Source: Spirochaetia bacterium (GTDB lineage: Bacteria > Spirochaetota > Spirochaetia > SZUA-6 > Bin103). Taken from it: a stretch of 64,000 bases of DNA. A program made the translations under genes and the position numbers. Below are positions 25,244-46,710 of the stretch, piece by piece. The first letter of the stretch is position 1; each line of letters begins with the position of its first letter. Below the pieces are notes generated by a model that had not been told where the DNA came from, searched no databases, and saw only the letters and a list, made by a program, of their open reading frames with translations. Location of the stretch: assembly GCA_965203055.1 (NCBI GenBank), contig OZ241863.1:1504001-1568000 (forward strand), given 5' to 3'.

Positions 25244-25265
25244 CGCCAGCTCCTGGGCGGCTAGT

Positions 25266-26519: not shown

Positions 26520-26540
26520 CTGCCGGCTCGGGGCGCGGGT

Positions 26541-28340: not shown

Positions 28341-28469
28341 CGATCAACTCTGTGCACCATCTCCGCCGCCCTGTCAACGCGCCTCCGCGAGGCGAGGCCT
28401 GCACACACAACAGCAGGGTGGATTGGTCTTGGGAGCGCGTGCTACCCTGCCGCTGCCAGGAGGGGACCT

Positions 28470-29756
28470 GTGAGTAGAGCATCGTTGTTGTCGCTGTTGC
28501 TGGCGGCCGGCATCGCCGCGCTGATGGCGTGCGAGCCGGCGGCGCGGCCGCCCGCCATGACCGCCGCCCCGGCAAAAGGGGAGGGGGGGACTCCGAGTGA
28601 GCCGACGCCCACTCAGCCGGCCGAGAAGAGGGAGAAGGGCTGGACGATCGGCGCGGCCGACTTTGGTAATGATGAACTGAACTTGGTGGGCGACGTGTCC
28701 AACCGTTCCGCGCCGTATGAGTGGGAGCCGATCACCGCCGGCGCCAAAGTGAGCGTTTCGATCGACGGACACAAGCTGCCGTTCACGAGCAAGAGCGCCA
28801 AGCCGGTCTTCGCGTCCGACATCTCCGGCGCGGAGTGGACGGTTGCCGCGGAGGTTCGGGCGGGCGCAGTGACGCTGGTGCTCACCGCTCCGGATCAGAC
28901 CGAAAACCTGGGCTTCGTGGAGTCGGTGAGGCTCACGAACGGGGGGAGCGGCTACACCTCGGTTCCCACCGTGACGTTTGACGCGCCGCCGTCCGGCGGC
29001 ACCGCGGCAACCGGCGCCGCGGTGGGGCCCGGCGGCGTCTTGCGCGTGCAGCTTGCGGTGGACGGCGTGACCGGGCGCGTCGGCGGTTATTACAACTCCG
29101 GGTGTTGTCCAACCGTGACGTTCGGGGCGGCGCCGTCCGGCGGCACCACGGCGACCGGAACAACGACGATGCGAACCGAAGTAGGGAGACTATTCTTTGA
29201 TAACCTGGGGAGCGGCTACACCTCTCCCCCAACCGTGACGATCGACCCTCCGCCGGCCGGCTCAGGCGGCACCCAGGCAACCGCAACGATCGTCGGGATA
29301 GTGGCGGGGGCGATTAGCACCTATGCGATGGGGAACCGGGGGAGCGGCTACAGCCTCACGTCTCCCCCTGCCGTTACGTTTTCGGGAGGAGGGGGCAGCG
29401 GTGCGGCCGCCAGACCCGACATGGTGCAAAGAAGCGTAAACCGAGTGACGATCACGAACCCCGGGAGCGGCTACACGTCCGCCCCGACCGTGACCTTTCA
29501 GACCTCGACGGGCGGTGGTACTCCCCGTACGGCAACCGGCAGCGCGGTGCTGCAAACCGAGGTCACGTCGGTGACGGTCACGAACCGGGGGAGCGGTTAC
29601 CTGTCACCGCCCGCCGTTACGATTACGGGCGGAGGGGGCAGCGGCGCGACCGCCGCGGCAATGCTGGCGGAGGAGGGCAACGACCAATACCACAACCTGT
29701 TTTGGGCACGCCAGACGCTGGAAGGCAAGCGGCTTCTGGTGAAGCTGGCGGACTAG
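28470..29756 (+). CDS. Surface lipoprotein with six GSGYT..PTVT repeats (paralog 1)
   Basis: GGAGG RBS and GTG start, LMAC lipobox, six ~36-45 aa Thr/Gly-rich repeats; C-terminal part of ORF 25173..29756. Confidence 0.85.
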   Translation: MSRASLLSLLLAAGIAALMACEPAARPPAMTAAPAKGEGGTPSEPTPTQPAEKREKGWTIGAADFGNDELNLVGDVSNRSAPYEWEPITAGAKVSVSIDGHKLPFTSKSAKPVFASDISGAEWTVAAEVRAGAVTLVLTAPDQTENLGFVESVRLTNGGSGYTSVPTVTFDAPPSGGTAATGAAVGPGGVLRVQLAVDGVTGRVGGYYNSGCCPTVTFGAAPSGGTTATGTTTMRTEVGRLFFDNLGSGYTSPPTVTIDPPPAGSGGTQATATIVGIVAGAISTYAMGNRGSGYSLTSPPAVTFSGGGGSGAAARPDMVQRSVNRVTITNPGSGYTSAPTVTFQTSTGGGTPRTATGSAVLQTEVTSVTVTNRGSGYLSPPAVTITGGGGSGATAAAMLAEEGNDQYHNLFWARQTLEGKRLLVKLAD

Positions 29757-29901
29757 GACTGCGGGAGCGGTGCTGCCGCGGCGCCGCCAGCAAGTCGTTG
29801 CTTCGCGCCCTCCACGGAAATACCGGATAAATCACATGTCTACAGCCGGTTGATTGGGTCTTGGGAGCGCATGCTACACTGCCGCTGCCAGGAGGGGACC
29901 T

Positions 29902-31155
29902 GTGAGTAGAGCATCGTTGTTGTCGCTGTTGCTGGCCGCCGGCATCGCCGCGCTGATGGCGTGCGAGCCGGCGGCCCCCGCCATGACCGCCGCCCCGGCA
30001 AAAGGGGGAGAGGGGACTCCGAGTGAGCCGACGCCCACTCAGCCGGCAGAGAAGAGGGAGAAGGGCTGGACGATCGGCGCGGCGGACTTTGGTAATGATG
30101 AACTGAACCTGGTGGGCGACGTGTCCAACCGTTCCGCGCCGTATGAGTGGGAGCCGATCACCGCCGGCGCCGAAGTGAGCGTTTCGATCGACGGACACAA
30201 TCTGCCGTTCACGAGCAAGAGTGCGGAGCCGGTCTTCGCGTCCGACATCTCCGGCGCGGAGTGGTCGGTTGCCGCCGAGGTTCGGGCGGGCGCGGTGACG
30301 CTGGTGCTCACCGCTCCGGATCAGACCGAAAACCTGGGCTTCGTGGAGTCGGTGAGGCTCACCAACCCGGGGAGCGGCTACACTTCGGTTCCCACCGTGA
30401 CGTTCGAGGCGGCGCCGTCCGGCGGCACCGCGGCAACCGGCGCCGCGGTGGGGCCTGGCGGCGTGGCGTCAGTGACGATGGGGGCCCTCGGTTATTACTA
30501 CTCCGGGTGTTGTCCCACCGTGACGTTCGCGGCGCCGACCAGCGGCACCACGGCGACCGGAACGACGACGATGCGAACCGAAGTAACGAGAATAATCATC
30601 ACGAACACGGGGAGCGGTTACACCTCTGCCCCAACCGTGACGATCGACCCTCCGCCGGCCGGCTCGGGCGGCACCCAGGCAACCGTAACGGTCGCGATAC
30701 AGAGCGGGTCACTTTATTCCTATACGATGGGGAACCGGGGGAGCGGCTACAGCCTGACGTCTCCCCCTGCCGTTACGTTTTCGGGCGGAGGGGGCAGCGG
30801 TGCAGCCGCCAACCCCGACGTGGCGCAAAGAAGAGTAACCGGAGTGACGATCACGAACCCCGGGAGCGGCTACACGTCCGCCCCGACCGTGACCTTCATG
30901 ACCTCGACGGGCGGTGGTTCCCCCCAGACGGCAACCGGCAGCGCGGCGCTGCGAACCGAGGTCACGTCGGTGACGGTCACGAACCGGGGGAGCGGTTACC
31001 TGTCACCGCCCGAGGTTACGATTACGGGCGGAGGGGGCAGCGGCGCGACCGCCACGGCAACACTGGCGGAGGGCGGCAACGATCAATACCACAACCTGTT
31101 CTGGGCGCGCCAGACGCTGGCGGGCAAGCGGCTTCTGGTGCAGGTGGCGGACTAG
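29902..31155 (+). CDS. Surface lipoprotein with six GSGYT..PTVT repeats (paralog 2)
   Basis: Same RBS, start and lipobox as paralog 1; near-identical termini, divergent central repeats. Confidence 0.85.
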   Translation: MSRASLLSLLLAAGIAALMACEPAAPAMTAAPAKGGEGTPSEPTPTQPAEKREKGWTIGAADFGNDELNLVGDVSNRSAPYEWEPITAGAEVSVSIDGHNLPFTSKSAEPVFASDISGAEWSVAAEVRAGAVTLVLTAPDQTENLGFVESVRLTNPGSGYTSVPTVTFEAAPSGGTAATGAAVGPGGVASVTMGALGYYYSGCCPTVTFAAPTSGTTATGTTTMRTEVTRIIITNTGSGYTSAPTVTIDPPPAGSGGTQATVTVAIQSGSLYSYTMGNRGSGYSLTSPPAVTFSGGGGSGAAANPDVAQRRVTGVTITNPGSGYTSAPTVTFMTSTGGGSPQTATGSAALRTEVTSVTVTNRGSGYLSPPEVTITGGGGSGATATATLAEGGNDQYHNLFWARQTLAGKRLLVQVAD

Positions 31156-31216
31156 GATGGCGGGAGCGGGTGCTGCCGCGGCGCCGCCCGGCAGGTCGTT
31201 GCTTCGCGCCTCTGCG

Positions 31217-31471
31217 TCAGCGAGCGCCGACGTGGGCCGCGCGGTCGAGCAGCGCGCGGACGCGAAGGTGCGTCTCGAGATCAGCGCGGCGGGTCGCGTC
31301 GTTCGGCCAGTCCGGTCGAGTCGCGCGCGCCGCTTCGGACAGATCGATGGCGATCCGTACCTTGTCCGCTACCGGCAGGTTCACCCGGCGCCGGCGTGAA
31401 AGGCGCTCCGGCGCATCCCAATCGCGCCGCGCGTAGGCGCGGAGTTCCGCAGGATCGAGGCGCGGCGCCAT
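31217..31471 (-). CDS. Small hypothetical protein, probable partner of a nucleotidyltransferase
   Basis: Ends HVGAR*, the DNA that overlaps the nucleotidyltransferase start at 32407; GGGAG upstream. Confidence 0.6.
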   Translation of the reverse strand: MAPRLDPAELRAYARRDWDAPERLSRRRRVNLPVADKVRIAIDLSEAARATRPDWPNDATRRADLETHLRVRALLDRAAHVGAR

Positions 31472-31489
31472 CGGAGGCCACTCTCCCCC

Positions 31490-31789
31490 TTAAGCGGTCG
31501 TTGCTTCGCGCCTGAGTGTCGGCAGGGAATCCAGATCGTCGCCCACTCGCTCCTCCGCGCGCCGCAACTCGTAGAGCTTCTGCAGATTCATCCAGAACTC
31601 CGCACTGGTGCCGAAAAAGTGCGCCAACCGGAGTGCCGTGTCCCCCGTGATCGCACGTCGTCCGTTGAGAATCTCGGTGATTCGGTTCGCAGGCACCTTG
31701 AGTTGCCGCGCGAGCTCGGCCGCGCTCATGTCAAGTACCTTCAACTCCTCGGCGATATGTTCGCCCGGATGGATTGCGGGTACTCCCAT
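31490..31789 (-). CDS. higA: HigA-family antitoxin (HTH), orphan
   Basis: AIHPGE, RITEILNGRRAITGDTALRL..FFGTSAEFWMNLQ; GGAGGA RBS. Confidence 0.9.
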   Translation of the reverse strand: MGVPAIHPGEHIAEELKVLDMSAAELARQLKVPANRITEILNGRRAITGDTALRLAHFFGTSAEFWMNLQKLYELRRAEERVGDDLDSLPTLRREATTA

Positions 31790-31828
31790 ATTCTTCCTCC
31801 TCGGGATTAGTGGTACCGCGGGCGGTGT

Positions 31829-32407
31829 CTACCCCGCGCCGGGCGTGACGTCGGCGATGGCCGCATCCAGTCTCGGAACCAGATCCGATTGTCCAAGCGC
31901 TTCCTCCAGTTGGCAGAGGAGGTCGCGCGCCTCGGTCCGGTCCACTTCGCCGCCGGCCAGCAGCGAACGCAGATCGTCCAGGTCCTTGCCGCGGCCGGCG
32001 AGCGCCTTCATCACCACCAGGTCGGTGGCGTGGGCGATGGGTACCTCGACGCCATCGATAGCCGTGCGCGTAGCGCGGCCCAGTGCGATCGCTTCGAATC
32101 CCGATCCTGCGATTACCAGATCGACCTCCATTCCCGAGGCATGGGTCAGAGGAATGACCGCGCCGCGTGCACGGAGCTCATCCGCAATGTCGGGGAAGCG
32201 GTGGCGCAGTCCCGCGGCCGCAAGGGCGTCGATCAACCCCTGCAGACCGGCGCTCCCACCCTCCACCTGCACCGTGATGTCGAGGTCCTGCGTAGCGCGG
32301 GGAGCGCCGCGCACCGCAACCGCGTGCGCACCAAAGACGAACCAGCGGAGGCCGTGACCGTCGAGCACCCGGGCGACCGCGGCGAGTGCGTCAGCGAGCG
32401 CCGACAT
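31829..32407 (-). CDS. Nucleotidyltransferase-superfamily protein
   Basis: FGAHAV...G.PRATQDLDI, EVDL, DLVVMKALAGR.KD..D. Confidence 0.8.
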   Translation of the reverse strand: MSALADALAAVARVLDGHGLRWFVFGAHAVAVRGAPRATQDLDITVQVEGGSAGLQGLIDALAAAGLRHRFPDIADELRARGAVIPLTHASGMEVDLVIAGSGFEAIALGRATRTAIDGVEVPIAHATDLVVMKALAGRGKDLDDLRSLLAGGEVDRTEARDLLCQLEEALGQSDLVPRLDAAIADVTPGAG

Positions 32408-32461
32408 TCAGAGCTTCGGCCATCGTGTGACGACCCGTGTCGCCTTGCGTTATGACGCCGC

Positions 32462-34261
32462 CTACCACGCCCATACGGCGACGGCAGTGCACGCGAGCTC
32501 CGTCGACCGCTGTTCGATGGCCGCAAAGTTCCACGGCCCGGCGCGATCGGCGATGTCGAGCGCCAGCCGGCTCGGAGATTCGCGCAGCAAGCGCTGTTTT
32601 TCGGAAAACGGACGGCGCCCCATTTCCGAATTGCGTTCGCGTTTGCGCAGGCACAGATTGCCGATCGAATTGACGACCCTCGAATAGTCGTCGCGGTGCG
32701 CGTCGTCTCCCATTTCGCGCTGCCAGTCGCCGCTGCTGCCGATGTCTTGCGGCGCGACGTGCTCCACGGTGTCGAGGGTGGAGTAGTCCGGCAACTCACC
32801 ACCTCGCGCGGTCGCCAGATGGCGGTCCAGTTCTTCGAGAACGAGGCGGGTGAATCCGATCTCGCGCGGCCGGTAGACCGGAGACTTCACGAGGGCGTCT
32901 CTGAACTCGTCGTCCCCGACCCATAGCCCCTCCTGCTTGATGACGTCACGCAGGGTTGCCGCCAAGTCCGTATCATCCCGTTCCTCGATCCGGTCCAGCA
33001 GGGATGGAAAGAACGAATCGTATCTCGTTACCGGCAGTTCGGCGACCTTGCGGCGGACCAGCAGCACGTACACCGTGCGGACCAGGCTCGCCGCTTCCTC
33101 GGTGGAGAGTGCGCCGGCGCGCTGCGTCTTCAGAACCGCCAGCAGAAAGGGCCGGCAGGACGACATGTTGGTTTCGCCGATCTTCTTCAGCACGGCATCC
33201 AAGGCGGCGGCGCCGTTTCTCGATTCGCCGAGTATTCTGCGGTACAGTGGCGCCGAGTCGGCGATTTCGTTCAGATGCCGGCGGGCGGCGCCGGCATCGA
33301 GCTGCTTGTTGTGCTGCTTGAAGAACACGTAGAGCCGGCGCCCCTTGCCGATGATCCTGCTGTGACCGATGGAGAACAGATGCCGCAGGTACTCTTCGAA
33401 GTCGAAGGAATCCGCCAGCGGCGACGAGCGGTCGATCCGCTGCACGTTGACCCAGTGCGAGCGGTGCAGCGACTCGTAATCGTCCTGGTTCGCAATGAGA
33501 GGCCGGAACAGGTAGTTGCACATCAATTCGGCCGCCGTGAGCGGTATTCCCTTGTCGTTCAGGCTCTCGAAGATCGCCTGCGGATCGTCCCGCCTGCCGA
33601 GTGGTATCCAGACGACTTTGAGGCACTCGGTCAAGGCTCTGATCCAGCGCCAGATGCCCTCGTCTCCCATATCGCCAAAGTGGCGTCCCATCCAACGCTC
33701 GAACTTATTGGATATGTTGCCGTTCGGCAGATAGAGGTACAGGTCTTCCTGCAGGGTCGGCGCCTCGGGGTTCCGGTTTCCGAATACGGAATAATAGGTG
33801 GCCAATCGGTCGCCCTTGACGCTGAACAGCTTGATCCGCCAGTAGTCATCGCGCGCCTGCCGCTCGTCCGTCCGATTGATCAGCCATTGTCCTGTCGCAT
33901 CGTAGTGCGCGCGCGCCTTCGGCGCCTTGGACAGCAGCGTTTCCAGTCGGCGCCGGAAGTAGGCGAGCATGAGATACACCGTCGTGAATCGTTGCTGGCC
34001 GTCGATGATGTCGAAGATCTTGAAGCGAGGATCCCCGGACTGCTCCGCCACCACGACCGGCCCGAAGAAATGTTCCTGCTCGGCGAGGTCGCCGTTCTGC
34101 GCGGGGTCGAGCACCTGTTCCTCGAGGTCCTGTTTGAGCTGATTCCAGTTCCTGGAGCCCCACACGTAGCCGCGCTGGAAGAACGGGATCACGTAGCGCA
34201 TCTCGCCCGAGAATATGTCGGCGAAATTGCGACTGATGATCTCTCCGTTGCTCTTGGGCAT
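32462..34261 (-). CDS. DUF262 + DUF1524 (HNH) protein, GmrSD-like restriction endonuclease
   Basis: IPFFQRGYVW, IIDGQQRFTT, IFESLNDKG; TVEHVAPQ...SIGNLCL...N; lower GC than the flanks. Confidence 0.88.
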   Translation of the reverse strand: MPKSNGEIISRNFADIFSGEMRYVIPFFQRGYVWGSRNWNQLKQDLEEQVLDPAQNGDLAEQEHFFGPVVVAEQSGDPRFKIFDIIDGQQRFTTVYLMLAYFRRRLETLLSKAPKARAHYDATGQWLINRTDERQARDDYWRIKLFSVKGDRLATYYSVFGNRNPEAPTLQEDLYLYLPNGNISNKFERWMGRHFGDMGDEGIWRWIRALTECLKVVWIPLGRRDDPQAIFESLNDKGIPLTAAELMCNYLFRPLIANQDDYESLHRSHWVNVQRIDRSSPLADSFDFEEYLRHLFSIGHSRIIGKGRRLYVFFKQHNKQLDAGAARRHLNEIADSAPLYRRILGESRNGAAALDAVLKKIGETNMSSCRPFLLAVLKTQRAGALSTEEAASLVRTVYVLLVRRKVAELPVTRYDSFFPSLLDRIEERDDTDLAATLRDVIKQEGLWVGDDEFRDALVKSPVYRPREIGFTRLVLEELDRHLATARGGELPDYSTLDTVEHVAPQDIGSSGDWQREMGDDAHRDDYSRVVNSIGNLCLRKRERNSEMGRRPFSEKQRLLRESPSRLALDIADRAGPWNFAAIEQRSTELACTAVAVWAW

Positions 34262-34335
34262 CGCTCTCCTCGATAGTCAATCTACGCCGCGTCAGACACG
34301 TTCCGATGCTTTTTTTCGCCGGCCTCGAGACGGCG

Positions 34336-34387
34336 GCCGAAAAGGTGACGGACGGGGACCGAGGTGTAACCGTTCCCCTTTTTCGGC
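34336..34387. repeat. Imperfect palindrome (terminator or REP-like)
   Basis: GCCGAAAAGG..ACGG / CCGT..CCTTTTTCGGC at the desaturase stop. Confidence 0.5.
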
Positions 34388-35433
34388 TACTCGGCCGGCG
34401 CCGCGTCTACGGCAGTCGGAGCTCCGCGCTTGCCGAGCTTGCGCTTGCGTTCGCGCATCGTCCGGTGCGCCTCGGGCGAACCGTCGTGGAAGCTGCCGAA
34501 CCACTTGTCCAGGGGCACCCCTTCGTTGCCGTAGTTGCAGTCGAAGTAGCGGTGATGCAGGTAGTGGAAGTAGCCGCCGTTGCTCATCGCGTGCTTTTCT
34601 CCGAGCTCGAACTTGTAGAACCCGGCGTGCCCGGCCGCCGGACTGAGGCCGGTGTGCACCAGATGGAACACGGCGTGCAGCGGGTGCGAGGGGATGATCC
34701 AGTGCAGCAGCACCCCGGAGAAGTAGAGCAGGTGCTCGATAGGATGCATCGACAGCCCCGACCACGGCCCGATGTTCACGTTCTTGTGGTGCAGGTAATG
34801 GGCGGCCTTGTAGAGCGGCTTCCAGTGGGTGAGGCGATGGGTCCAGTAGAAGTGCGCCTGGCGCAGCAGCAGGATGAACACCAGCATGAGCACGCAATAG
34901 ACCGGACTCTCGGCCCAGTCCACGTAGGGGATGATGCGGTTGGAATAGGCCCACAGCGTTACCGCCTCGTAGGCGGTCCAGATGGTCACTCCGCTGGCGA
35001 AGTTCCAGAAGATGTTGTCGCGCGTCTGATTCCCGAACAGGAATGCCCGGCTGTTGGCCATCAACCAGCGCGGGTTGTACTTGTAGCGCTCGCCCTGGGC
35101 GCGTTGGACGTAGAGCCGCAGGTGCAGGCCGCCGGCGATTACCAGCAGCAGCGCGGCGTTGCGCAGATAGATCTCGGCGATCCAGCCCACCGCGAAGGTG
35201 CCGGTGCGCGACAGGTCCGGCGTCAGGAACAGCCAGGCGACGACGGCGATTCCGATGTAGATGGCGTTCTTCGGCCACAGCAGCCCGTCATGTCCAAACA
35301 GCATCTTCAGGACGGGACGCAGCTTGAGCGGCCAGGTAAAGAGCGGCGACGGCTTGGGCAGCGACTCCGGCTGCCACTCGCCGCGTGCTGCCGGGCTGCG
35401 CCCGGCCTGCCCGGTAAGGTCGGCTTCGGCCAT
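34387..35433 (-). CDS. Sterol desaturase / fatty-acid hydroxylase family protein
   Basis: His boxes HFYWTHRLTH, HYLHH, HPIEH, HYLHHRYFDCNYG. Confidence 0.9.
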   Translation of the reverse strand: MAEADLTGQAGRSPAARGEWQPESLPKPSPLFTWPLKLRPVLKMLFGHDGLLWPKNAIYIGIAVVAWLFLTPDLSRTGTFAVGWIAEIYLRNAALLLVIAGGLHLRLYVQRAQGERYKYNPRWLMANSRAFLFGNQTRDNIFWNFASGVTIWTAYEAVTLWAYSNRIIPYVDWAESPVYCVLMLVFILLLRQAHFYWTHRLTHWKPLYKAAHYLHHKNVNIGPWSGLSMHPIEHLLYFSGVLLHWIIPSHPLHAVFHLVHTGLSPAAGHAGFYKFELGEKHAMSNGGYFHYLHHRYFDCNYGNEGVPLDKWFGSFHDGSPEAHRTMRERKRKLGKRGAPTAVDAAPAE

Positions 35434-35535
35434 GTTCAAAGATCCTCCCGCGTTCGGTAGGGGATTGCGGTTCGCAGCCTATCAAAGATGCTCCTGCGTG
35501 ACAACAGACCGGGCAGCGGGTAGATTGTTGCCGGC

Positions 35536-36144
35536 ATGGCCGCGCTCACCGAATCGCCGCCGGCCTCCGGCCGGCGCTGCAGCCGCAGGCTGTTCAGCAG
35601 ACGGGAGTACCACGCCATGGGACGCACCGGCATCCTGAAGCCGGCCGAACGCGTCGAGCTGCTGGTAGGCGAGGTTATCGTCATGTCGCCCATAGGACAT
35701 CGCCACGCCGCGTGCGTCGACCGCCTGAACAGCGCGTTCGCCGCACGGTCGGCTCGTCTGGCCGGGCGCGCGCTGGTGCGGGTTCAGAGTCCCCTGGCGG
35801 AGTCTGAAATCTCGGAGCCGCAGCCCGACCTGATGCTCCTGGCCCACCGCGATGACCGCTACGATTTCGGCCATCCCCAGCCGCAGGACGTGCTTCTGCT
35901 GGTGGAAGCCGCCGAGTCGTCCATCAATTACGATCGTCATACCAAGCTGCCGTTCTACCCGGCGGCCGGGATCCGCGAGGTGTGGATCGTCAACCTGCAG
36001 GCTGACCGGATCGAGTCATACACCGAGCCGGAAGCCGGCGGTTACCGCGTCACGCGGCGTTACGGACTCGGCGACCGGCTGGCGCCCGCCGCGCTCCCGG
36101 ACCTGCAGCTCGCCGTAGCGCAGATCATTCCCGCCCGCGCGTAG
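35536..36144 (+). CDS. Uma2-family endonuclease-like protein
   Basis: RVELLVGEVIVMSPIG..H, SEPQPD, D...KL..Y..AGIREVWIVNL. Confidence 0.88.
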   Translation: MAALTESPPASGRRCSRRLFSRREYHAMGRTGILKPAERVELLVGEVIVMSPIGHRHAACVDRLNSAFAARSARLAGRALVRVQSPLAESEISEPQPDLMLLAHRDDRYDFGHPQPQDVLLLVEAAESSINYDRHTKLPFYPAAGIREVWIVNLQADRIESYTEPEAGGYRVTRRYGLGDRLAPAALPDLQLAVAQIIPARA

Positions 36145-36174
36145 CCGGGCGGCCGGCCGGACGGCCGGCGGCGG

Positions 36175-37143: not shown

Positions 37144-37233
37144 GCCGGCCAAGTGTACCCCGGAACGGGCCGGAAGGGGCCGGAACGGACCGCGCCCGTA
37201 GCCGGCCCGCGCCGGGACGCGATAGGGTACGGC

Positions 37234-38223: not shown

Positions 38224-38302
38224 ACGAGCAAGCGCGCGCTACCTGATCCGAGCGCTCACTTTTCCGCTCAAGCCGGGCGCCCCGGCAGCCGACAAGCAAG
38301 TC

Positions 38303-38941
38303 ATGGAGAAGTCCCCGGCCCGCGTCCCAAGGCGCGAATATGCTTCCGCCCAACGCGAGCACATCCTCAACGCCGCCTCCCGCGTCTTTACCGAGCGCGG
38401 CTACGACCGCGCCACCACCAAGGCGATCGCCGCCGCCGCGGAGCTGTCGGAAGGCGCGCTCTACCATCACTTCTCGGGCAAGCGCGAGATGTTGCTCGGC
38501 GTCCTTGCCCGCGTGATCGGGGCGGTACAGGGGGAGCGCGGCGGCGGCGGCGCGGCCGATCTGTACGAGCGCTACCGGCGCGCCATCAACGTGCGGGTGC
38601 GCGGCGCGCACCCGCAGATGAGAACCTTCTTCGCCCTGCTTTCAGCCATTCTCGCCGACCGCGAACTGGCCGGCCACGTGCGCAGCGAATTGCTGCAGCC
38701 CGGCATCGACAAGGCGGAACGGGCATTGCAGGCGGCCGTCGCCGGCGGCGCCATGCGGCAGATGGACGTCCCGGCGGCGGCCCGGCTGGTGTACGCCATC
38801 TTCATGGGAATCGAGCTGCTGGCGCAGATCGGCGACCAGGAGACGCTGGCCCTGCTGGAGGATGGCGGGCGGCTCGGCGACGCCTTCGCCGGCCTGCTGC
38901 TGGACGGTCTGGCGGCGCGCAGCGGGACCGGGCAGGAGTAG
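38303..38941 (+). CDS. TetR/AcrR transcriptional regulator
   Basis: ILNAASRVFTERGY..ATT..IA....LSEGALYHHF.GK. Confidence 0.9.
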   Translation: MEKSPARVPRREYASAQREHILNAASRVFTERGYDRATTKAIAAAAELSEGALYHHFSGKREMLLGVLARVIGAVQGERGGGGAADLYERYRRAINVRVRGAHPQMRTFFALLSAILADRELAGHVRSELLQPGIDKAERALQAAVAGGAMRQMDVPAAARLVYAIFMGIELLAQIGDQETLALLEDGGRLGDAFAGLLLDGLAARSGTGQE

Positions 38942-38948
38942 CCTCGTT

Positions 38949-39662
38949 TCACATGGCGCCGAGCCGGGCCTTGGCGATCGCCAGCGCGGCGACGCACGCC
39001 GTTTCCACGCGCAGGATGCGCGCGCCGAGGGTGCACGGCAGGAAGCGGTGCCGGCGCAGCACGGCGCGGTCCGCCTCGCTCCAGCCGCGTTCGGGGCCCA
39101 CCGCCAGCACCAGGGGCAGGCGCAACGCGCAGGTTCCGAGGCGCGCCGCGCCCGCGGCGTGGTCCAGGGCGACGGCGGCCGCGCCGGCGGGAAGCTGCCG
39201 CGCCGCGCACTGCAGCGAAGCGCCGCAGGTCACCGCCGGCAGCGCGGTGGCCACTGCCTGCTGCAGCCCGTCCAGCAGGTGGCGGCGCCATTCGGAGGTG
39301 GTCCAGAGCCGGCTGCGGGCATAGTTGCGGTCGCTGGTTTCGGTATGCACGAAGCGCAGCTCGCGGCAGCCGAGCGCCGCCGCCTGATAGAGGATCTTGC
39401 GGGCGCTCGGCGGGCGCGGCAGGCCGACGATCAGCAGGATGTCGTCCGGCGGCGGCGCGGCGCCGTGCCAGTCGAAGGCCAGCTCCAGTTGGTCCGCGGC
39501 GGCCGCCAGCAGCGTGCCGGTGCCGGTTGGACCGTCGATTACGCCGGCTCGGAACCGGTCTCCGGGGCGGCAGCCGAGCACCTCCAACAGGTGGCGCGCG
39601 CGCTGATCGGCCCGCGCCAGGGTCTGCCGGCGCGCGCTGCCGGCGAACAGAATGACGTTCAC
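38949..39662 (-). CDS. rsmE: 16S rRNA m3U1498 methyltransferase
   Basis: HLLEVL, VGLPRP, AVGPERGWS, LGARILRVETA; GTG start at 39662. Confidence 0.85.
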   Translation of the reverse strand: MNVILFAGSARRQTLARADQRARHLLEVLGCRPGDRFRAGVIDGPTGTGTLLAAAADQLELAFDWHGAAPPPDDILLIVGLPRPPSARKILYQAAALGCRELRFVHTETSDRNYARSRLWTTSEWRRHLLDGLQQAVATALPAVTCGASLQCAARQLPAGAAAVALDHAAGAARLGTCALRLPLVLAVGPERGWSEADRAVLRRHRFLPCTLGARILRVETACVAALAIAKARLGAM

Positions 39663-39764
39663 CGAATGACGTTCCCGGCGGGCTCGCGACACCTCACGAC
39701 ACCTACGATACCGCGCGCTTGAGCCGCTCCGCCAGGATGGTCGATGATGGGCAACCGGAGAACC

Positions 39765-40694
39765 ATGCCACAACCGAGCGATCAACCCGCGTTGCACGGC
39801 GTCATCGTGCCGATTCTGACCCCGCTTACCCCCGGCGAAGCGGTGGACGTGCGCTCCTTGCGCCGCCTGGTGAACTACCTCGTGGACAACGGCGTCCATG
39901 GCCTGTGGGCCGCCGGAACCACCGGCGAGTTCGCCGCCCTGGACGAGGCATCGCGGCGGCTGGTCATCGAGACGGTGGCCGAGGAGGCGGGCGGGCGGGT
40001 GCCGGTGATCGGCAACGTCGCCGCCCCGGCGACGCGCGCCGCCGGCGCCGCCGCCGCCGCGCTGCAAGGCTGCCCGCTGGCCGGCGTCGCGGCCACGCCG
40101 CCGTTCTACCACCTCCATTCCCAGGATGAACTGATCGACCATTTTCACGCCGTCGAGGAGCGCAGCCGGCACCCGTTGTGGGTCTACAACATCCCCGGCA
40201 CGGTCGGGCTGACCGTGGAACCGGACACCATCGCCGCGCTGGCGGCCGACGGCACGGTGGCGGGCGTGAAGGACAGCTCCGGCGCCGGCGAGGCGTTCGC
40301 CCAGCTCGTCACGCTGTGCCGGCACCGCCGCCTCGACCTGTACCGCTTCATCGGCACCATCTGGCGCGTCGCCATGGCCGGCAGCGGCGCGCACGGCGTG
40401 ATTCCCGGAGTGGCCAACCTGGCCCCCGCCGGCGCCGCGGCGGCGTGGGAGGCGGGCGCCCGCGGCGACGAGGAGGCCGCTGACCGCCGCCTCGCCGAGG
40501 TGCTCACCGCGGCGCGCGTAATGCAGCTCGGCCGCGGCGGCGGGGCGAGCGTCGCCGGGCTCAAGTCGGCGCTGAAGCTGCTCGGCATCATCGAGCACGA
40601 TACCGCGTCCGCTCCGATGCGGCCCCTCAGCGACGAGGAAAAGTCCCGCCTGCCGCCGCTGCTGGCGCAACTGGGACTCGGCGATTACGGTTGA
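39765..40694 (+). CDS. DapA/NAL-family aldolase
   Basis: GTTGEF, PPFY, YNIPG, GVKDS. Confidence 0.88.
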   Translation: MPQPSDQPALHGVIVPILTPLTPGEAVDVRSLRRLVNYLVDNGVHGLWAAGTTGEFAALDEASRRLVIETVAEEAGGRVPVIGNVAAPATRAAGAAAAALQGCPLAGVAATPPFYHLHSQDELIDHFHAVEERSRHPLWVYNIPGTVGLTVEPDTIAALAADGTVAGVKDSSGAGEAFAQLVTLCRHRRLDLYRFIGTIWRVAMAGSGAHGVIPGVANLAPAGAAAAWEAGARGDEEAADRRLAEVLTAARVMQLGRGGGASVAGLKSALKLLGIIEHDTASAPMRPLSDEEKSRLPPLLAQLGLGDYG

Positions 40695-40790
40695 GGGGCA
40701 AGCGGTATCCGGCCGCGACCGCCCGCCCGCCCGGCGTGTTGCTCATTCCGCGTGGATGCGCTACCTTACCTGCGTCCCTTGGACGTATTC

Positions 40791-40863
40791 GCCAGAATAG
40801 CTCAGTTGGCAGAGCGGTTCACTCGTAATGAACAGGTCAGGGGTTCGAATCCCCTTTCTGGCT
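40791..40863 (+). tRNA. tRNA-Thr(CGT)
   Basis: GCCAGAA/TTCTGGC acceptor stem, GTTCA-CT-CGT-AA-TGAAC anticodon arm, GGTTCGAATCC T-arm; CCA not encoded. Confidence 0.96.
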
Positions 40864-40899
40864 TCGCGTAACGCGCCGGAGTGAACGGAGGTGGGCGGA

Positions 40900-41790
40900 A
40901 TGCTGGTCGCGGGGATCGACGTGGACGCGCTCATCGACGCCCGGGTGCTGGCCGAGTACCGCGAACGCGGCTACTGGCGCAGCCCGCGGCTGTTCGACGC
41001 GCAGACCACCGCGCGGCTGCGGCGCGCCCACCGGCGCCTCTGGGCGGGTGACTTCGACCATCCCATCGCTTCGCAGTACGGCCCGCCCGGGGAGGAATCG
41101 GATCGGGCGGCGGTGCGTCAGCAGTGCAACGCCTTCTGGCTCAACGACGACATCCGCGCGGTGACCACCAGCCCGCTGCTGGGCGCCATCGGCGCGCGGC
41201 TGATGGGCGTCGCCGAGGTGCGGTTGTGGCATGACCAGGCGGTGAAGAAGCCGGCCGCCGGCGCCGCCGGCGGCGCCGTGACGGCCGGCAACATCGGCTG
41301 GCATCAGGACTACGGCCACTGGCAGTGCTCCAGCTCGACTGACATGTGCACCGCCTGGGTGGCGCTGCAGGACACCGACCTCGGCAACGGCGCCATGCGC
41401 ACCATCGTCGGCTCGCACCGCTGGGGATTGCTGGAGGAGAGCGACAACTTCGGCAAGAAGGATCTGGAGGGCCTGCGGGCGCGTCTCTCGACGCAGCCGA
41501 TCAGCGGCGCCTGGATCGACGAGCCGTGCGTGCTGCGCGAGGGGGAGGTGAGCTTCCATCACTGCCTCACGCTGCACGGTTCCGGCCCCAACCTGAGCGG
41601 CGCCGCGCGCCTGTGCGTCATCTCCCACATGATGCCGGGGGATACCAGCTATCGGCCCAGCCCCCAGCATCACCCGAACCTGGTGTTCCTCGGCCCTGAC
41701 GCCCGCCCCGGACAGCGCTTCGCCGGGCCTTGGTGGCCGGTCATGTGGCCCCCGGTAGCTACGCCGGGTCAGCGCACGCAGCCGGGATAG
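40900..41790 (+). CDS. PhyH-family dioxygenase
   Basis: GWHQD, WVALQD, NGAMR..VGSH, HGSGPN; GGAGG RBS. Confidence 0.9.
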   Translation: MLVAGIDVDALIDARVLAEYRERGYWRSPRLFDAQTTARLRRAHRRLWAGDFDHPIASQYGPPGEESDRAAVRQQCNAFWLNDDIRAVTTSPLLGAIGARLMGVAEVRLWHDQAVKKPAAGAAGGAVTAGNIGWHQDYGHWQCSSSTDMCTAWVALQDTDLGNGAMRTIVGSHRWGLLEESDNFGKKDLEGLRARLSTQPISGAWIDEPCVLREGEVSFHHCLTLHGSGPNLSGAARLCVISHMMPGDTSYRPSPQHHPNLVFLGPDARPGQRFAGPWWPVMWPPVATPGQRTQPG

Positions 41791-42569
41791 GTGGCGCCGG
41801 CGATCGGGAAGTACACGGGACCGCCGCCGGGGTCGGTGTGGGTGGAGCGGGCGCTCATGTAGGAGAGCGCTATGGCGCGCCGCCAGTGGGCGCTCCGGTT
41901 GGGCTCGGTGGCGTGCGGCAGCAGGGAGTGGAAGAACAGCCCCGCGCCGGCCGGCATCGGCACCAGCGTCCTGGCGGCCGCCGCGTAGTGCTGCGGCGCG
42001 ATCACGTAGTCGTCGGTGACGTGCACGTGGGGCAGCGCGCCGCCCCGATGGGCGCCGGCGATCACCCCCATGCAGCCGTTTTCGGTGGTGGCCTCGTCGA
42101 TGGCCAACCAGCAACTGCACAGCTCCATGGGCCGGATCGGCCAATAGGGGGAATCCTGATGCATCCCCTTGGCCGAGCCCACTTCCGGCGGCTTGAGCAA
42201 TACCGCGTTGCGGAACATCTTGAGGTCCGGCCCCAGGATGCGGGTGAGGACGCGGACCACGTTGGGGTGGCGGCCGAGCCCCTGAAACAGGTCGTCGGAC
42301 TCCACCAGACCGTCGATCTTGCGGATGCCGTCGCCGGGATGCGCCACGCTCAGTTCGCCGCGGGTGACGCGCGGCTCGGTCTGGACCCTGATGCGCTCCC
42401 GCGAGCGCCCGCCGTGCGTGTACTCGCGCAGCCGCTCTTGCAGGGCGCGCAATTCCGCCGCCGAGACCAGGTCATCGACCACGACGAAGCCGTCGCTGCG
42501 GTAATCGGCGAGCTGCCGGTCGGACAGCTCGATTGCGCCTGCGGCGCCGGTATCCGGTGCGGGTGCCAT
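41769..42569 (-). CDS. PhyH-family dioxygenase
   Basis: MHQDSPYW, WLAID, ENGCM, FHSLLPH...N.S..WRR. Confidence 0.9.
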   Translation of the reverse strand: MAPAPDTGAAGAIELSDRQLADYRSDGFVVVDDLVSAAELRALQERLREYTHGGRSRERIRVQTEPRVTRGELSVAHPGDGIRKIDGLVESDDLFQGLGRHPNVVRVLTRILGPDLKMFRNAVLLKPPEVGSAKGMHQDSPYWPIRPMELCSCWLAIDEATTENGCMGVIAGAHRGGALPHVHVTDDYVIAPQHYAAAARTLVPMPAGAGLFFHSLLPHATEPNRSAHWRRAIALSYMSARSTHTDPGGGPVYFPIAGATYPGCVR

Positions 42570-42715
42570 GGTGACGCAGGGTAGGGGCGGCGCCCCGGCG
42601 TGGCAAGCGGTCGCCGGCCGGCTTCGCACCGGGAAACCATTGCGCCGGTCCGTGCGCCACGCGCCGGCGTAAAGCCGCTATGGGCCGATTGCGGTAGAAT
42701 GGCGCGCACGTATCC

Positions 42716-44698
42716 ATGAGCACGATGCTCCCCGTCAACCTTGACGATCTCCTCTACTGTCGCAGCGTGGAGTCCGAACGAGTGGAGTTCAAGGCGTCGT
42801 GGGACCCGGCCACGACCGGCCCGCAGGTGCTGCGCACGATCGGCGCGTTCGCGAACGACTTTCACAACCTGAACGGCGGCTACGTAGTGATCGGGGTCGT
42901 GGAGCGGGACGGACGGGCAGCGCTGCCGCCGGCCGGCCTGTCCGCCGAAGAAGTCGAGGCCGCGCAGCAATGGATTCGCGGCAACTGCAATCGGATCGAT
43001 CCGCCGTACTTCCCCATCCTGTCGCCGGAATCGGTCGAGGGTCGGCTCATCCTGGTGGTCTGGGCGCCGGCAAGCGACACCAAGCCGCACCGCGCACCCG
43101 GCGGCAAGGGCGCAGCGCGCTACTGGGTCCGCCTCGGCTCCGAGACCGTCGACGCCGAGCGCCGCGGCAACCTGCTGCCCGCGCTTCTGCAGCAGACCGC
43201 GCGGGTGCCGTGGGACGATCGCCGCGCTCATGACGCGCGGGTCGAAGACGTGCGCGAAGCGAAGGTCCGCGAGTATCTGCGCGACGTCCGCAGTGGGCTC
43301 CCTGATGAGACCGACGAGCGCGACCTCTACCGGCGCCTGCGCCTCACGATGAAAGTCAACGATCATGAGGTGCCCCGGAACGCGGCGTTGTTGTTCTTCT
43401 CGAGCCGCCCTACACGGTGGTTTCGCGGCGCCCGGATCGAAGTGGTGCAGTTTGCCGCGGACCGCGGCGGAGACGTTCAGGAAGAGCGCATCTTCGAAGG
43501 CGGCCTCGTAGACCAGCTTCGTGACTGTCTGAACTACCTCGAAAACCTGTCCACCGTCCACCTGCAGAAGCAACCGCATCGGAGCCAGGTGCGCGGCTGG
43601 GTGAGCTATCCGATGCGGGCGCTGCGCGAGACGCTCGTCAACGCGGTGTATCACCGCGGCTACGACGTCGACCGGCCCGATCCCACCAAGGTCTATCTGT
43701 TTCCGAGCCGCATCGAGGTGATCAGCTACCCCGGACCGGTTCCCGGAATCGAGGCGCGTCATCTGCTGCCGAATGCCGAGGCGCGCGCGGCGCCGGCCCG
43801 CAACCGGCGAATCGGGGAGTTTCTGAAGGAACTGAAGCTGGCGGAGGGACGCCTCTCAGGGTTGCCGAAGGTGTTCCAGACGATGGAAGCCAATGGTTCG
43901 CCGGTGCCGCGCTTCGAGTTCGACGAGCAGCGCACCTGGTTTCAGGCCACGCTGCCGGCCCACCCGGAATACGGCGCCCTGTCCGCGCTGCGGGACGCGG
44001 CGCACCTGCGGGCGCTGGGCGAGCAGGCCGCAGCCCTGCGCCGCGTCGAGTCCGCGTGGGAGTATCACCGCGGTTCCGGGCTCCTCGCCGCGGAGTTGAT
44101 CGGCGTGTACGCGGCCCTCGGCGACCTCGCCCGCGCCGAAGGAATCCTGGACGACTTCAAGAGCGAGGGAGCGGAGACCGCGGTCCCGTACGTCGAAAAC
44201 AGGATGATCGAGGCGTTAGTGGACATGGGGGAGGGAGAAAAGGCGCGCCGCATGCTCATGCGGAGCCGCCCGTTGCTTTCCGGCAAGGACGCTATCGACG
44301 CCGCTATTCTGGCACGCCGCGCCAGGGACGAGCGAGGCGCCCACAGTTACTTCCAACGCGCCGGAGAAGCGGTCTATGCCGACGCTCGAGCGCTGCTCGA
44401 ATTCGCGCAGACCAAACTGTGGTTGGCGGTAGAGGCTCACCGCTACCGGCGCCGTGACTCGAATCGAAGATTGCTTGCCGAGGCCCGGACGCTCCTGGAG
44501 CGCGTGATCCAGCTCGATGCTTCTCCCGCCCGCCATGCCTGGGCGTGGCGCGAGCTCGCGCGCGCCTGCAACTGGCTGCGGCTGCCGGCTGGCGACGTCG
44601 AAGCCGCCTATCGCAAGGCGATCGAGTTGTTGCCGGACGAATCCCGGTTCGTCCGGGAATTGGCCAAAGTACGAGCAGCCCGGTCACCGCGGCGATAA
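42716..44698 (+). CDS. AlbA_2 (Schlafen-like) + HATPase_c_4 + C-terminal TPR-like helical protein
   Basis: ESERVEFKASW, AFAND...GGYVVIGV; NAVYHRGY, RNRRIGEFLKEL, EGRLSG; TPR-like AYRKAIELLP C-terminus. Confidence 0.85.
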   Translation: MSTMLPVNLDDLLYCRSVESERVEFKASWDPATTGPQVLRTIGAFANDFHNLNGGYVVIGVVERDGRAALPPAGLSAEEVEAAQQWIRGNCNRIDPPYFPILSPESVEGRLILVVWAPASDTKPHRAPGGKGAARYWVRLGSETVDAERRGNLLPALLQQTARVPWDDRRAHDARVEDVREAKVREYLRDVRSGLPDETDERDLYRRLRLTMKVNDHEVPRNAALLFFSSRPTRWFRGARIEVVQFAADRGGDVQEERIFEGGLVDQLRDCLNYLENLSTVHLQKQPHRSQVRGWVSYPMRALRETLVNAVYHRGYDVDRPDPTKVYLFPSRIEVISYPGPVPGIEARHLLPNAEARAAPARNRRIGEFLKELKLAEGRLSGLPKVFQTMEANGSPVPRFEFDEQRTWFQATLPAHPEYGALSALRDAAHLRALGEQAAALRRVESAWEYHRGSGLLAAELIGVYAALGDLARAEGILDDFKSEGAETAVPYVENRMIEALVDMGEGEKARRMLMRSRPLLSGKDAIDAAILARRARDERGAHSYFQRAGEAVYADARALLEFAQTKLWLAVEAHRYRRRDSNRRLLAEARTLLERVIQLDASPARHAWAWRELARACNWLRLPAGDVEAAYRKAIELLPDESRFVRELAKVRAARSPRR

Positions 44699-44717
44699 AC
44701 GCAGAGCAGTGGATGCA

Positions 44718-46314
44718 TCACTCTTCCACTACCTGAACCCGAAGCAGCTTGCCGTTCAGCGTTCGGCGCGCCCAATACAGGTTCTGGTACTGATCGAAGC
44801 CGCCCGCCGCCAGCTTCGCGGTGCCGGTAGCGGTAGTCCCGCTGGCCGGCGCTGAAAAGGTCACGGTCGGGGCCGACGGATAGCCGCGCCCCGGGTTCGT
44901 GATCGTCACTGACCGGACCCTGACCTGCAGCACCGCGGTGCCGGTAGCGGTGGTGGACGGGTGCAGCGATGCCGAAAAGGTCACGGTGGGGGGCGAACCC
45001 GCGGCGTAGCCAGCCCCCGGGTTCGTGATCGTCACTGACTCGACGCCGGATTGCAGCGCCGCGCTGCCGGTGGCCGTAGTCCCACTGGTCGGCGCCGAAA
45101 AGGTCACGGTCGGGGCGGACGTGTAGCCGCGCCCCGGGTTCGAAACAGATACTCTGAAGCGGCCACTCTGCAGCACTGCGGTGGCCGCTGCCCCGGTGCC
45201 GCCGCCGCCCGAAAAGGTGATGCTGGGGGCAGACGCGTAGTGGCCCCCGGCGTGACCCACCGACACTGAAGTGACGCTGCCGGAGCTGATCGTCGCGGTG
45301 CCGAGGGCCGGGATGCCGCCGCCGGACGGGGTGGAGAAGGTAACGGTGGGAGCGGACGTGTAGCCCGTCCCCCCGTTCGTGACCGTCACTGAAGTTACTC
45401 CGTTGTGCGACACCGACGTGCCGGTGGCGGTGACGCCGCCGGATGGCGGCGCGGAAATGGTAACGGTGGGGAGGGACGCGTAGCCGCTCCCGCGGTTGGT
45501 GACGGTCACTCCGCTGACGCCGCTCTGCAGCACCGCGGTGCCGGTCGCGGTGGTCCCGCTGGCCGGCGCCGAAAAGGTCACGGTCGGGGCGGACGTGTAG
45601 AGGGCCCCCGGGTTCGTGATCGTCACTGACGTAAGCCGGGTAATCAGGGTAGCGGTGCCGGTGGCCGTGACGCCGCCGGGCGGCGGATCGGAAAAGGTCA
45701 CGGTGGGGTCAGCCGTGTAGCCGCTCCCCGGCTCCGTGATCGTGACCGACTCGACCGAGTCCGACTCGCCCGACTGATCGGGCGCGGTGAGCGCGAGGAC
45801 CACCGCGCCTGCCTGGAGGTCCGGCGTTACCGTCCACTCCGCGCCGGATATATCGGACGGGAAGACCGGAGTGGTCGTCGTGCTGGTGAACGGCAGCTCG
45901 TGCCCGTCGATCGCAACGCGCACCTTGCCGGCGGCGATCCGACCCCAGAGATACGGCGCGGAACGGTTGCTGGTCTGGCTCAACACGTCGGCGTCATCGC
46001 CAAAGTGAGCCGCGCTGATCGTCCAGCTCTTGGCGTTGTCCTGCGGCGGCGTTGGCGGCGGCGCGCCGCTGCCTCCGGTCCCTCCGCCCGAACCGGCGTT
46101 GGCAGGAGTAGCAGCGGGCGGCCGAGCCGCCTCCGCGCACGCCAGCAAGGCGATGCCGGCGGCCGCCGCGAGCGCGAGCAGCGCTGCCTTACGAGCCGGA
46201 CCGGTTCTGTCGGGTGCGGCGCGGTATCCTCTTACCGACGGCTTCCGGGGGGGGGGGGGGGGTATCGTTAGTTAGGTTAGGGGGATCGTTCGGGTCGCGC
46301 GCCGGCATACGCAT
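44718..46314 (-). CDS. Surface lipoprotein with eight GSGYT..PTVT repeats (paralog 3), frameshifted at poly-C
   Basis: Same split base domain (WTI.AA.FG...APDQ / DQY.NL.WAR.TL.GK.L.V); RKAALLALAAAAGIALLAC signal in frame upstream of 46148; the ATGs at 46314/46308 are 1 nt out of frame across C16. Confidence 0.75.
46247..46262. repeat. G16/C16 homopolymer
   Basis: 16 consecutive G on the plus strand; longest homopolymer noticed in the window. Confidence 0.95.
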
Positions 46315-46317
46315 CAA

Positions 46318-46689: not shown

Positions 46690-46710
46690 AGCACGGGGCC
46701 GGCGCACTCC

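Follow-up and report, generated by a model that had tools for sequence, protein, structure and literature searches.

Phase-variable repeat lipoproteins are textbook tools of pathogens (mycoplasmas, Borrelia and treponemes), and the Vlp lipoproteins of Mycoplasma hyorhinis are known for their poly-A promoter tracts. The Vsa proteins of Mycoplasma pulmonis are described as a lipid-anchored surface multigene family with in-frame tandem repeats, variable in both size and phase, that forms a surface shield of variable height and switches by DNA recombination (PMC6080569). For the Treponema pallidum genes tprE/G/J, tprL and tp0126, the account in PMC7864442 is of poly-G tracts of variable length, located in the promoter or the open reading frame (ORF), that set expression by slipped-strand mispairing. 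In the streptococcal AgI/II proteins (SpaP, SspB and BspA), matched outgoing and returning repeat regions are described as forming a stalk with a variable tip domain, and an interaction of the N-terminal with the C-terminal part as locking the base (PMC7732690). Here we describe a family of predicted lipoproteins from an uncultured spirochaete that shares features with each of these systems. Three of its genes, which we call paralogs A, B and C, lie in the 64,000-nucleotide (nt) stretch of contig OZ241863.1 (assembly GCA_965203055.1, positions 1,504,001 to 1,568,000) that we analysed, referred to below as the window. The explanation that we consider probable is that these genes encode lipid-anchored hairpin rods on a split base domain, subject to homopolymer switching and together making up a variable coat.

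As read from the ORF list and its translations, A and B lie on the + strand and C on the - strand, and all three share one architecture: a lipobox, an N-block of ~90 amino acids (aa), 6, 6 and 8 repeats of ~40 aa, respectively, and a C-block of 27 aa. This three-paralog layout is the one put forward in the original prediction, an earlier reading of the bare sequence; the blocks reappear in our alignment, and splitting at P.[VI]T[FI] again yields 6, 6 and 8 repeats. The consensus sequences of the N-block (WTI.AA.FG...NRSAPY.W..I.AG..V.V.IDGH.LPFTS...SDISGAEW.V...AGAV.L.LTAPDQ) and the C-block (DQY.NL.WAR.TL.GK.L.V) are conserved as first written there. At the protein level A is 87% identical to B and 54% identical to C, and A and B are tandem copies. 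Gene A (28470..29756, +) starts with a GTG 7 nt after an AGGAGG, and its translation reads as a signal peptide and lipobox (…AALMAC) at 28470..28532. It continues with an interrupted G tract (GGGGAGGGGGGG, 28578-28589) that holds no uninterrupted G run, the N-block (28635..28907), which we take as one half of the base domain and which was placed by alignment and hidden Markov model (HMM), six ~40-aa repeats of the form V.SVTITNpGSGYtSaPTVTF plus a linker and a TATGTA strand (28917..29672), and the C-block (GNDQYHNLFWARQTLEGKRLLVKLAD, 29673..29753), placed by alignment and repeat splitting. Because the GC content of the region is ~70%, it contains many long spurious ORFs, and a 1527-aa ORF (25173-29756) that includes A in frame was rejected as a high-GC read-through artefact. 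Gene B (29902..31155, +) has the same start context as A, followed by an interrupted G tract (GGGGGAGAGGGG, 30004-30015), the N-block (30061..30333), six repeats (30343..31071) and the C-block (31072..31152). In gene C (44718..46229, -) the N-block lies at 45774..46031, the eight repeats at 44805..45755 and the C-block at 44721..44804.

A, B and C are predicted lipoproteins, that is, signal peptidase II substrates, a judgement made by reading their N-termini. The lipobox sequence is VSRASLLSLLLAAGIAALMAC in A and B and ...RKAALLALAAAAGIALLAC in C, where it ends IALLAC. The N-terminus of A and B, (M)SRASLLSLLLAAGIAALMAC, shows a charged n-region, a hydrophobic core and the lipobox Cys, a pattern that recurs across the family, and in all three proteins a Pro/Gly-rich linker lies between the lipobox and the N-block. 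Within the 6-repeat group, repeat 2 has GYYYSGCCP in place of GSGYTSAP (A ~29100-29125, B ~30500-30525); its vicinal Cys-Cys pair is kept in A, B and their closest relatives and not in more distant 6-repeat members. Two metagenome proteins (P0006 and P0008) are mosaics that combine an A-type repeat 2, with its 7-aa insert, with B-type repeats 3-4 or 5-6, which suggests recombination or gene conversion between the tandem paralogs A and B.

The genome to which the window belongs, a single contig of 4.56 Mb, contains 145 stretches that match B. When HMMs of the N-block, the repeat and the C-block were built from A, B and C and run on the ORFs of this genome, they matched 45 ORFs, 32 of them with an N-block and 27 with N-block, repeats and C-block in one frame; the 32 N-block copies are dispersed over the chromosome. 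Outside this genome the distribution is narrow: the N-block was present in 5 of 41 related genomes (with 32, 29, 25, 22 and 5 matches) and in none of 17 genomes from other families of the order, and the 55 loci found among 185,579 species genomes all come from four Spirochaetia bacterium records of metagenome-assembled genomes. A word-index search with the N-block gave 22 matches, all unnamed, and an N-block profile run against 1.84 billion representative proteins gave 64 matches at E ≤ 1e-3 and 45 at E ≤ 1e-10, the weakest of them being Ig-like repeat proteins (PKD, Big_9, FlgD_ig). The N-block contains an Asp-box-like SD.SGAEW hairpin, and its profile has only weak matches in the PDB, the best of which is an Asp-box-like stretch of a xyloglucanase (E 0.0095). 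Pfam and NCBIfam returned nothing near a curated cut-off for A, B or C (Alginate_lyase2, OapC and SrfE were set aside as sub-threshold noise), sequence searches of the PDB gave no match for C and none for the repeat profile, and ESM Atlas gave no usable match. By title and abstract, the literature on the repeat motif and on lipoproteins of spirochaetal sponge symbionts held nothing on the family among the matches listed. The original prediction had recognised no described family for the base domain, and none emerged from our Pfam, NCBIfam, PDB profile and 1.84-billion-protein profile searches. On these comparisons, the family is a lineage-restricted and heavily expanded one among predicted spirochaetal lipoproteins. 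Two natural minimal members, with an N-block, a single repeat and a C-block (~170 aa when mature; L022:465-983 in genome G011 and L045:465-980 in genome G015), would be ideal for solving the structure of the base domain.

We tabulated repeat number for the genome of the window and for 78 loci from four other genomes, using those ORFs that have both blocks in one frame; ORFs with one block only, either frameshifted or cut by the end of a locus, were left out. To count repeats we combined a core HMM with the middle region's length and split degenerate repeats by hand; the resulting 95 rows, one gene having been counted twice via overlapping loci, correspond to 94 distinct proteins. The count is even in 90 of these 94 full-length members: 20 proteins have 4 repeats, 14 have 6, 19 have 8, 6 have 10, 13 have 12 and 18 have 14. 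The odd members have 1 (two proteins), 9 (one protein) and 11 (one protein) repeats. The claim that counts are always even, originally made from the three paralogs, thus holds for 27/27 proteins in their own genome and nearly so across the five. All even classes from 4 to 14 are present, several of them in unrelated subfamilies, and counts of 5, 7 and 13 were never seen among the 94 proteins.

One segment type stands out from the others, in that its linker often reads GGT[RQ]A and a Gly/Ser turn interrupts the strand that would otherwise continue into the following repeat (for example, AIQSGSLY, TISSGSVT and TIHGGQVL). In a clustering of all repeats, the segments assigned to cluster B were the fourth of 6 or the eighth of 14 repeats in 20/20 distinct proteins, and the turn motif is found at position 3 of 4, 4 of 6, 6 of 10 (position 5 in one protein) and 7 of 12. 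With the segment at position n/2+1, the special junction falls between repeats n/2 and n/2+1, at the midpoint of the array. In paralog C it corresponds to the ISSGSV junction between repeats 4 and 5, and in paralog B to …AIQSGSLY… (30700..30711, +, placed by setting window position 30025 as model residue 1). Both of these junctions, IQSGSL and ISSGSV, had been singled out beforehand as likely tight turns; both are present, and that of B is a tight turn in the structural model described below.

The two arms on either side of this junction also match each other. Coarse clustering put 677 of 788 repeats in a single type, so the arms were typed by eye and via the alignment to B: the outgoing arm type is 'G..VDSVTVGTAGSGY' and the returning arm type 'LRYGVASVTVTNGGSGY'. 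In an 88-sequence alignment led by B, longer members add repeats equally on each side of the centre; relative to B, the arms change by -1/-1 in members with 4 repeats, +1/+1 with 8, +2/+2 with 10, +3/+3 with 12 and +4/+4 with 14. With crude rounding, the arms are balanced in 78/88 aligned sequences. Six of the ten others, namely four four-repeat and two one-repeat proteins, are failures of the rounding, and four are truly unbalanced (L016, +3/+5; L017, +1/+3; L025, +3/0, n = 9; L027, +3/+2, n = 11). L016 and L017 are off by exactly two, as expected from duplication of two repeats in a single arm, provided that the turn is able to move by one repeat; parity looks like a hard rule and balance like a soft one. 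Relatives with 12, 10 and 6 repeats differ by one or three of each arm type, and 12-repeat members have one junction type in the N-arm, another in the C-arm and a single unique centre, with no two-repeat periodicity. Traces of duplication are visible in individual members: o+2729416 has ABAB duplications in both arms, and o+2934454 (14 repeats) has two extra central copies compared with its 12-repeat relatives, that is, a duplication at the centre.

AlphaFold2, given 88 family sequences, produced a model of B with a mean predicted local distance difference test score (pLDDT) of 88.0 (85.7-88.0 over five models) and a predicted template modelling score (pTM) of 0.56; our structural statements on B rest on the secondary structure and the alignment ranges of this model. 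Long single strands (102-117, 178-197, 258-278 and 339-350) arise where strand 3 of a repeat runs on into strand 1 of its successor, and at the centre strands 221-226 and 229-235 are linked by a two-residue beta turn. The C-block is modelled as a helix (354-365) and a strand (369-374) with a pLDDT of ~86-94, a combination already seen in a low-confidence first model. A Foldseek search of the PDB with the B model gave no match at E ≤ 1e-3 (TM score < 0.2). With VIA-align, 47/50 and 49/50 rows were short alignments (53-96 residues) to compact domains that nevertheless span from model residue 33 or earlier to residue 356 or later; the best match was residues 187-250 of 7rfv_A (Z 7.0, root-mean-square deviation (rmsd) 2.7, 62 residues aligned). 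Because such short alignments span both termini, the N-block and the C-terminal strand belong to one compact beta-sandwich in the model, in line with the earlier idea that the two blocks fold into a single base. The remaining rows align residues 99-188 of T4 gp18, or a related sheath protein, with model residues 187/188-267/268 (Z 4.5-5.9, 67-77 residues aligned), and in the model these two contiguous repeats around the central turn (residues 188-268) are the tip module. Given a closed base and a single central turn, the modelled chain goes out and comes back. The out-and-back reading of the repeat chain is supported, as a prediction, by the two features expected of it, termini that meet at the base in the model and matched arms in the comparative counts.

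Conservation follows the same geometry. In the 6-repeat group, mean pairwise identity is 0.65 in the N-block, 0.66, 0.54, 0.50, 0.56, 0.58 and 0.64 in repeats 1 to 6, and 0.72 in the C-block, so that it drops and then rises again symmetrically along the predicted path from base to tip to base. A conserved base with a variable tip had been part of the original prediction, and this gradient is consistent with it.

The repeats had also been likened to phage structural proteins, and the databases bear this out. The repeats of A, B and C match 15 to 17 PHROG families (E 1e-20 to 1e-45), whose annotations include tail fibre, head closure Hc2, baseplate wedge and virion structural protein, and in BFVD, which holds predicted viral structures, the B model has 48 matches at E ≤ 1e-3, the best of them (2.3e-15) a 738-aa protein of an uncultured phage. 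The BFVD matches are good locally (80-85 columns, rmsd 1.2-1.8, 39-48% identity) but poor globally (TM score ≤ 0.31), implying that an 80-aa two-repeat module is common to the family and to phages, whereas the way in which it is arranged overall differs. Pfam has no model for the repeat, and sequence searches turned up no solved structure of it.

A second line of evidence, absent from the original prediction and new here, concerns homopolymer tracts. The genome contains 42 homopolymer runs of at least 9 nt, all but one of them G or C, and 20 of the 42 lie within 420 nt upstream of the 32 N-blocks, a span that amounts to 0.3% of the genome and would be expected to hold 0.12 runs (~170-fold enrichment, binomial P ~1e-39). 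Such a run is carried by 20/32 family genes. The tracts fall into two classes. Those of class 1 are poly-G, 8-16 nt long in this genome and 8-22 nt overall, and sit within the coding sequence, where they fall in the QGGGG(K)PPSEP linker that connects lipobox and N-block. Of the 11 genes with poly-G, 4 have signal peptide and mature part in one frame, and in the other 7 the two are out of frame; in A, B and four other members the tract is interrupted or absent and the gene fixed in frame. Those of class 2 are poly-C, 10-20 nt long in this genome and 10-31 nt overall, with the conserved flanks ...GCTTA[C]nATAGA..., and lie upstream of the start, 15 to ~250 nt before the ATG; paralog C belongs to this class. 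Both classes recur in three other genomes, at 19/30, 20/23 and 16/22 loci and with lengths of up to 31 nt, and no tract was found at any of the five family loci of a fourth. When compared with the closest genome (G011), tract length differs in all 12 ortholog pairs with a tract (for example, 14 vs 20, 11 vs 22 and 12 vs 23), although the proteins are 93-99% identical; seven further pairs have no tract in either genome. Length change against such a background of protein identity is the signature of contingency loci. The tract-bearing family loci are predicted phase-variable loci, and these include C, with its run of 16 C, but not A or B, whose tracts are interrupted. The idea of antigenic variation, raised in the original prediction on other grounds, gains independent support from these putative switches.

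The 22 runs that lie outside the family (9-26 nt; 21 of G or C and one of A; for example, G000:C1 205565, 1667450, 1891480 and 3986337) may mark other phase-variable genes, and a crude lipobox scan near the 21 G/C runs among them gave three weak candidates. Five family loci (G000:C1 1934610-1936360, 2414081-2415817, 2699932-2701502, 2814655-2816081 and 4089492-4091663) change frame somewhere in the repeats or blocks, at a distance from the 5′ tracts, and are either pseudogenes or further slippage sites.

Paralog C has a tract but lacks a start codon. Its frame is open to 46271, the sole canonical start in that frame is a TTG at 46148, inside the lipobox, and it reads GTA-AGA-GGA-TAC where its closest paralog, o-1846111, reads ATG-AGA-GTA-TAC (MRVY...). 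Upstream of the signal peptide is a class 2 poly-C of 16 C on the coding strand (46247..46262, -), of the kind found in ten other family genes. An ATG at 46312..46314 (-), 4 nt after the stop of a nucleotidyltransferase gene, begins a frame that runs without a stop across the poly-C and is shifted by one base relative to that of the lipoprotein; with 15 or 18 C in the tract, the two frames would be fused. As sequenced, C is predicted to be silent or decaying. A metagenome contig of run X13 that spans the poly-C is identical, with 16 C. In runs X1, X5 and X15, contigs cover 46366-46800 and carry the nucleotidyltransferase gene at no less than 98% identity, and none extends over 46218-46365; the contig end at 46366 in all three runs could reflect divergence, rearrangement or an assembly break at the tract.

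In the explanation that we favour, each protein would be held by a lipid-anchored N-terminus and a proline/glycine-rich linker. Its base would be a compact beta-sandwich assembled from the ~90-aa N-block and the 27-aa C-block, the latter contributing a helix and the final strand, and the two blocks would enclose three-strand repeats of ~40 aa, even in number (4 to 14), each of them half of an 80-aa module that is also present in phage proteins. The chain would run out for n/2 repeats, reverse at one beta turn at the midpoint and return. The tip module alone would be made from two contiguous repeats, while each lower module would pair one outgoing with one returning repeat, every module being held inside the central hairpin of the module below. 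An even repeat count would then be needed because the base has to close. The product would be a rod whose length is graded, very roughly 3 nm for each module and ~6 to 23 nm in all (estimated from strand lengths alone), with its tip as the least conserved part. The slippery homopolymers, whose positions and length variation are documented above, would make expression stochastic: the length of poly-G would set the signal peptide in or out of frame, and poly-C would act upstream of the start, in the promoter or leader. Each cell might then display a changing subset of stalks with different heights and tips, a variable surface coat or adhesin set that could aid a host-associated, probably sponge-associated bacterium in escaping from phages or from host recognition. 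A more ambitious version, quite possible in our view but put forward tentatively, is that a phage-tail module has been nested recursively to give ~30 rods of 2 to 7 modules, growing by two repeats at a time and shuffled by the two switches into a coat of programmable height and variable tips. In a non-pathogenic bacterium that lives in an animal host, this coat would serve against phages or phagocytosis by the host.

The chief alternative is a sequential rod, in which contiguous two-repeat 80-aa domains are joined head to tail, the N- and C-block sit at opposite ends, and parity only reflects the two-repeat domain. We regard this as unlikely. The BFVD matches extend over 80-85 columns without a break, the model residues that align with T4 gp18 (188-268) are contiguous, tandem ABAB duplications exist, and the junctions of the B model alternate between broken (143-146, 227-228 and 310-314) and continuous (178-197 and 258-278) strands, all as a sequential rod would have it, as are the two even members with arms unbalanced by two. 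However, blocks at opposite ends are at odds with the 47/50 and 49/50 short structural alignments that include both termini, the junctions of the 12-repeat members do not show the two-repeat periodicity, and neither the balanced arms around one conserved central segment nor the symmetric conservation gradient would be explained. Several points do weigh against the hairpin rod. The pairing of repeat i with repeat n+1-i (in B, repeats 1-2 with 5-6) is something we infer from base closure and the central turn, and the module is contiguous both in phage proteins and at the modelled tip, which fits the sequential rod as well. The pTM of the B model is only 0.56, the first AlphaFold2 model, from 13 near-identical sequences, reached a pLDDT of 49.4 and a pTM of 0.28, and the VIA-align matches all have Z ≤ 7, which rates as middling. 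Among the counts there are the four odd members (1, 1, 9 and 11 repeats) and the even but unbalanced L016 and L017, and shared ancestry among paralogs and orthologs means that 94 counts represent far fewer independent events.

Less likely again is that the architecture is right but the tracts arise as hot spots of mutation, or as noise of the assembly, within a decaying family of ordinary, perhaps periplasmic, structural lipoproteins. Such decay would accommodate the 7/11 poly-G genes that are out of frame, the ~5 further loci frameshifted elsewhere, the missing start codon of C and the five family loci of one genome without a tract, but it does not account for the same two tract positions in four genomes, the ~170-fold enrichment over expectation, or the length variation in 12/12 ortholog pairs whose proteins are 93-99% identical and otherwise open. 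Here, too, there are points on the other side of the switching hypothesis: assembled long homopolymers can be off by a base, which affects the in-frame and out-of-frame calls; scans for a sigma-70-like promoter, around C's poly-C and upstream of A and B, detected none; and C, which has no ortholog in the closest genome (best match 52% identity), may be a decaying copy. That the genes belong to a prophage or derive from phage virion genes (tail fibre or neck decoration) rather than encoding cellular surface proteins seems to us very improbable, even though the repeats have matches among phage proteins both in PHROG (tail fibre, head closure and baseplate families) and in BFVD, and the best structural neighbours of the base domain are N-terminal domains of phage tail, neck and fibre proteins (Z 5-7). 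Every copy that we read has a predicted lipoprotein signal peptide, 32 copies are dispersed over the chromosome, and the N-block has no phage match and occurs only in a few spirochaete genomes and in metagenome proteins. The neighbours in the window (a hydrolase, a sulfatase, dioxygenases, GmrSD and others) include no phage morphogenesis genes.

The surroundings of the three paralogs have features of their own. Two paralogous Schlafen genes with AlbA_2 and HATPase_c_4 domains flank both lipoprotein loci, one at 25266-26519 (-), separated from A by a hydrolase gene, and the other at 42716-44698 (+), ending 20 nt from the stop of C. Genes of a defence-island-like kind lie between and beside the paralogs (31217-36144 and 46318-46707), among them a helix-turn-helix antitoxin-like gene (31490-31789), a GmrSD restriction enzyme (32462-34261), a Uma2 endonuclease (35536-36144) and the nucleotidyltransferase upstream of C (46318-46707).

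DNA of the window is present in sponge and marine metagenome runs, which suggests that the organism is marine and probably sponge-associated. The family would carry the logic of the phase-variable lipoproteins, at large scale, into an uncultured high-GC marine spirochaete, with ~20 putatively switchable genes per 4.5-Mb genome. A switchable set of this size points to strong diversifying pressure in an animal-associated community, exerted by phages or by host recognition. Annotation pipelines will take many such genes for fragments or pseudogenes, misled by a signal peptide in another frame or by the lack of a start. For structural biology, the family would offer a testable case of a length-tunable beta rod made by nesting a phage module, with a sequence rule (even counts and balanced arms) that can be checked in any new genome; for phage biology it would be a first structural way into a repeat that is very common but uncharacterised in tail, neck and baseplate proteins.

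How, then, does the family compare with the systems described at the outset? Like Vsa and Vlp, it consists of multigene repeat lipoproteins in which repeat number and, by prediction, expression are both variable. In contrast to both, its repeats are folded beta modules common with phages, come in even number and are inserted inside a split base domain, and the predicted switching is by G/C homopolymers in a genome of 70% GC, not by DNA recombination as in Vsa. No sequence relation to either was detected (no Pfam or NCBIfam match). With the T. pallidum genes it has in common the presence, in a spirochaete, of G tracts of variable length, but the T. pallidum genes are a handful that encode candidate beta-barrel outer-membrane proteins, whereas here ~20/32 paralogs per genome, all predicted repeat lipoproteins, are concerned, the tracts reach 20 nt (31 nt in a relative), and the organism is an uncultured marine bacterium, probably associated with sponges. 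Among phage proteins, PHROG families 460, 5342, 701, 708, 19630 and others share the common ~40-aa GSGY...PTVTF repeat and its 80-aa two-repeat module, and the BFVD entries A0A6J5L2T0, Q5GQW5 and A0A514ABN4 have the same module, but these phage proteins lack the lipobox, the N-block and the C-block, and they superpose poorly on the global scale (TMq ≤ 0.31). Structurally, the tip module (model residues 188-268) comes closest to domain I of T4 gp18 (3foa and 3fo8, residues 99-188; Z 5.7-5.9, 76-77 residues aligned, rmsd 3.2-3.5, 13% identity), with a Z short of what counts as clear, a likeness that may reflect no more than a common small beta barrel. The AgI/II adhesins appear to work alike, through an out-and-back stalk and a terminal lock, and are an analogy rather than homologs: their stalk is an alpha helix wound with a polyproline helix instead of paired beta repeats, they are sortase-anchored, and they have a fixed repeat number and no homopolymer switch. 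The family described here therefore belongs neither to the mycoplasma lipoproteins nor to AgI/II, although it resembles the former in its predicted variability and the latter in the predicted path of its chain.

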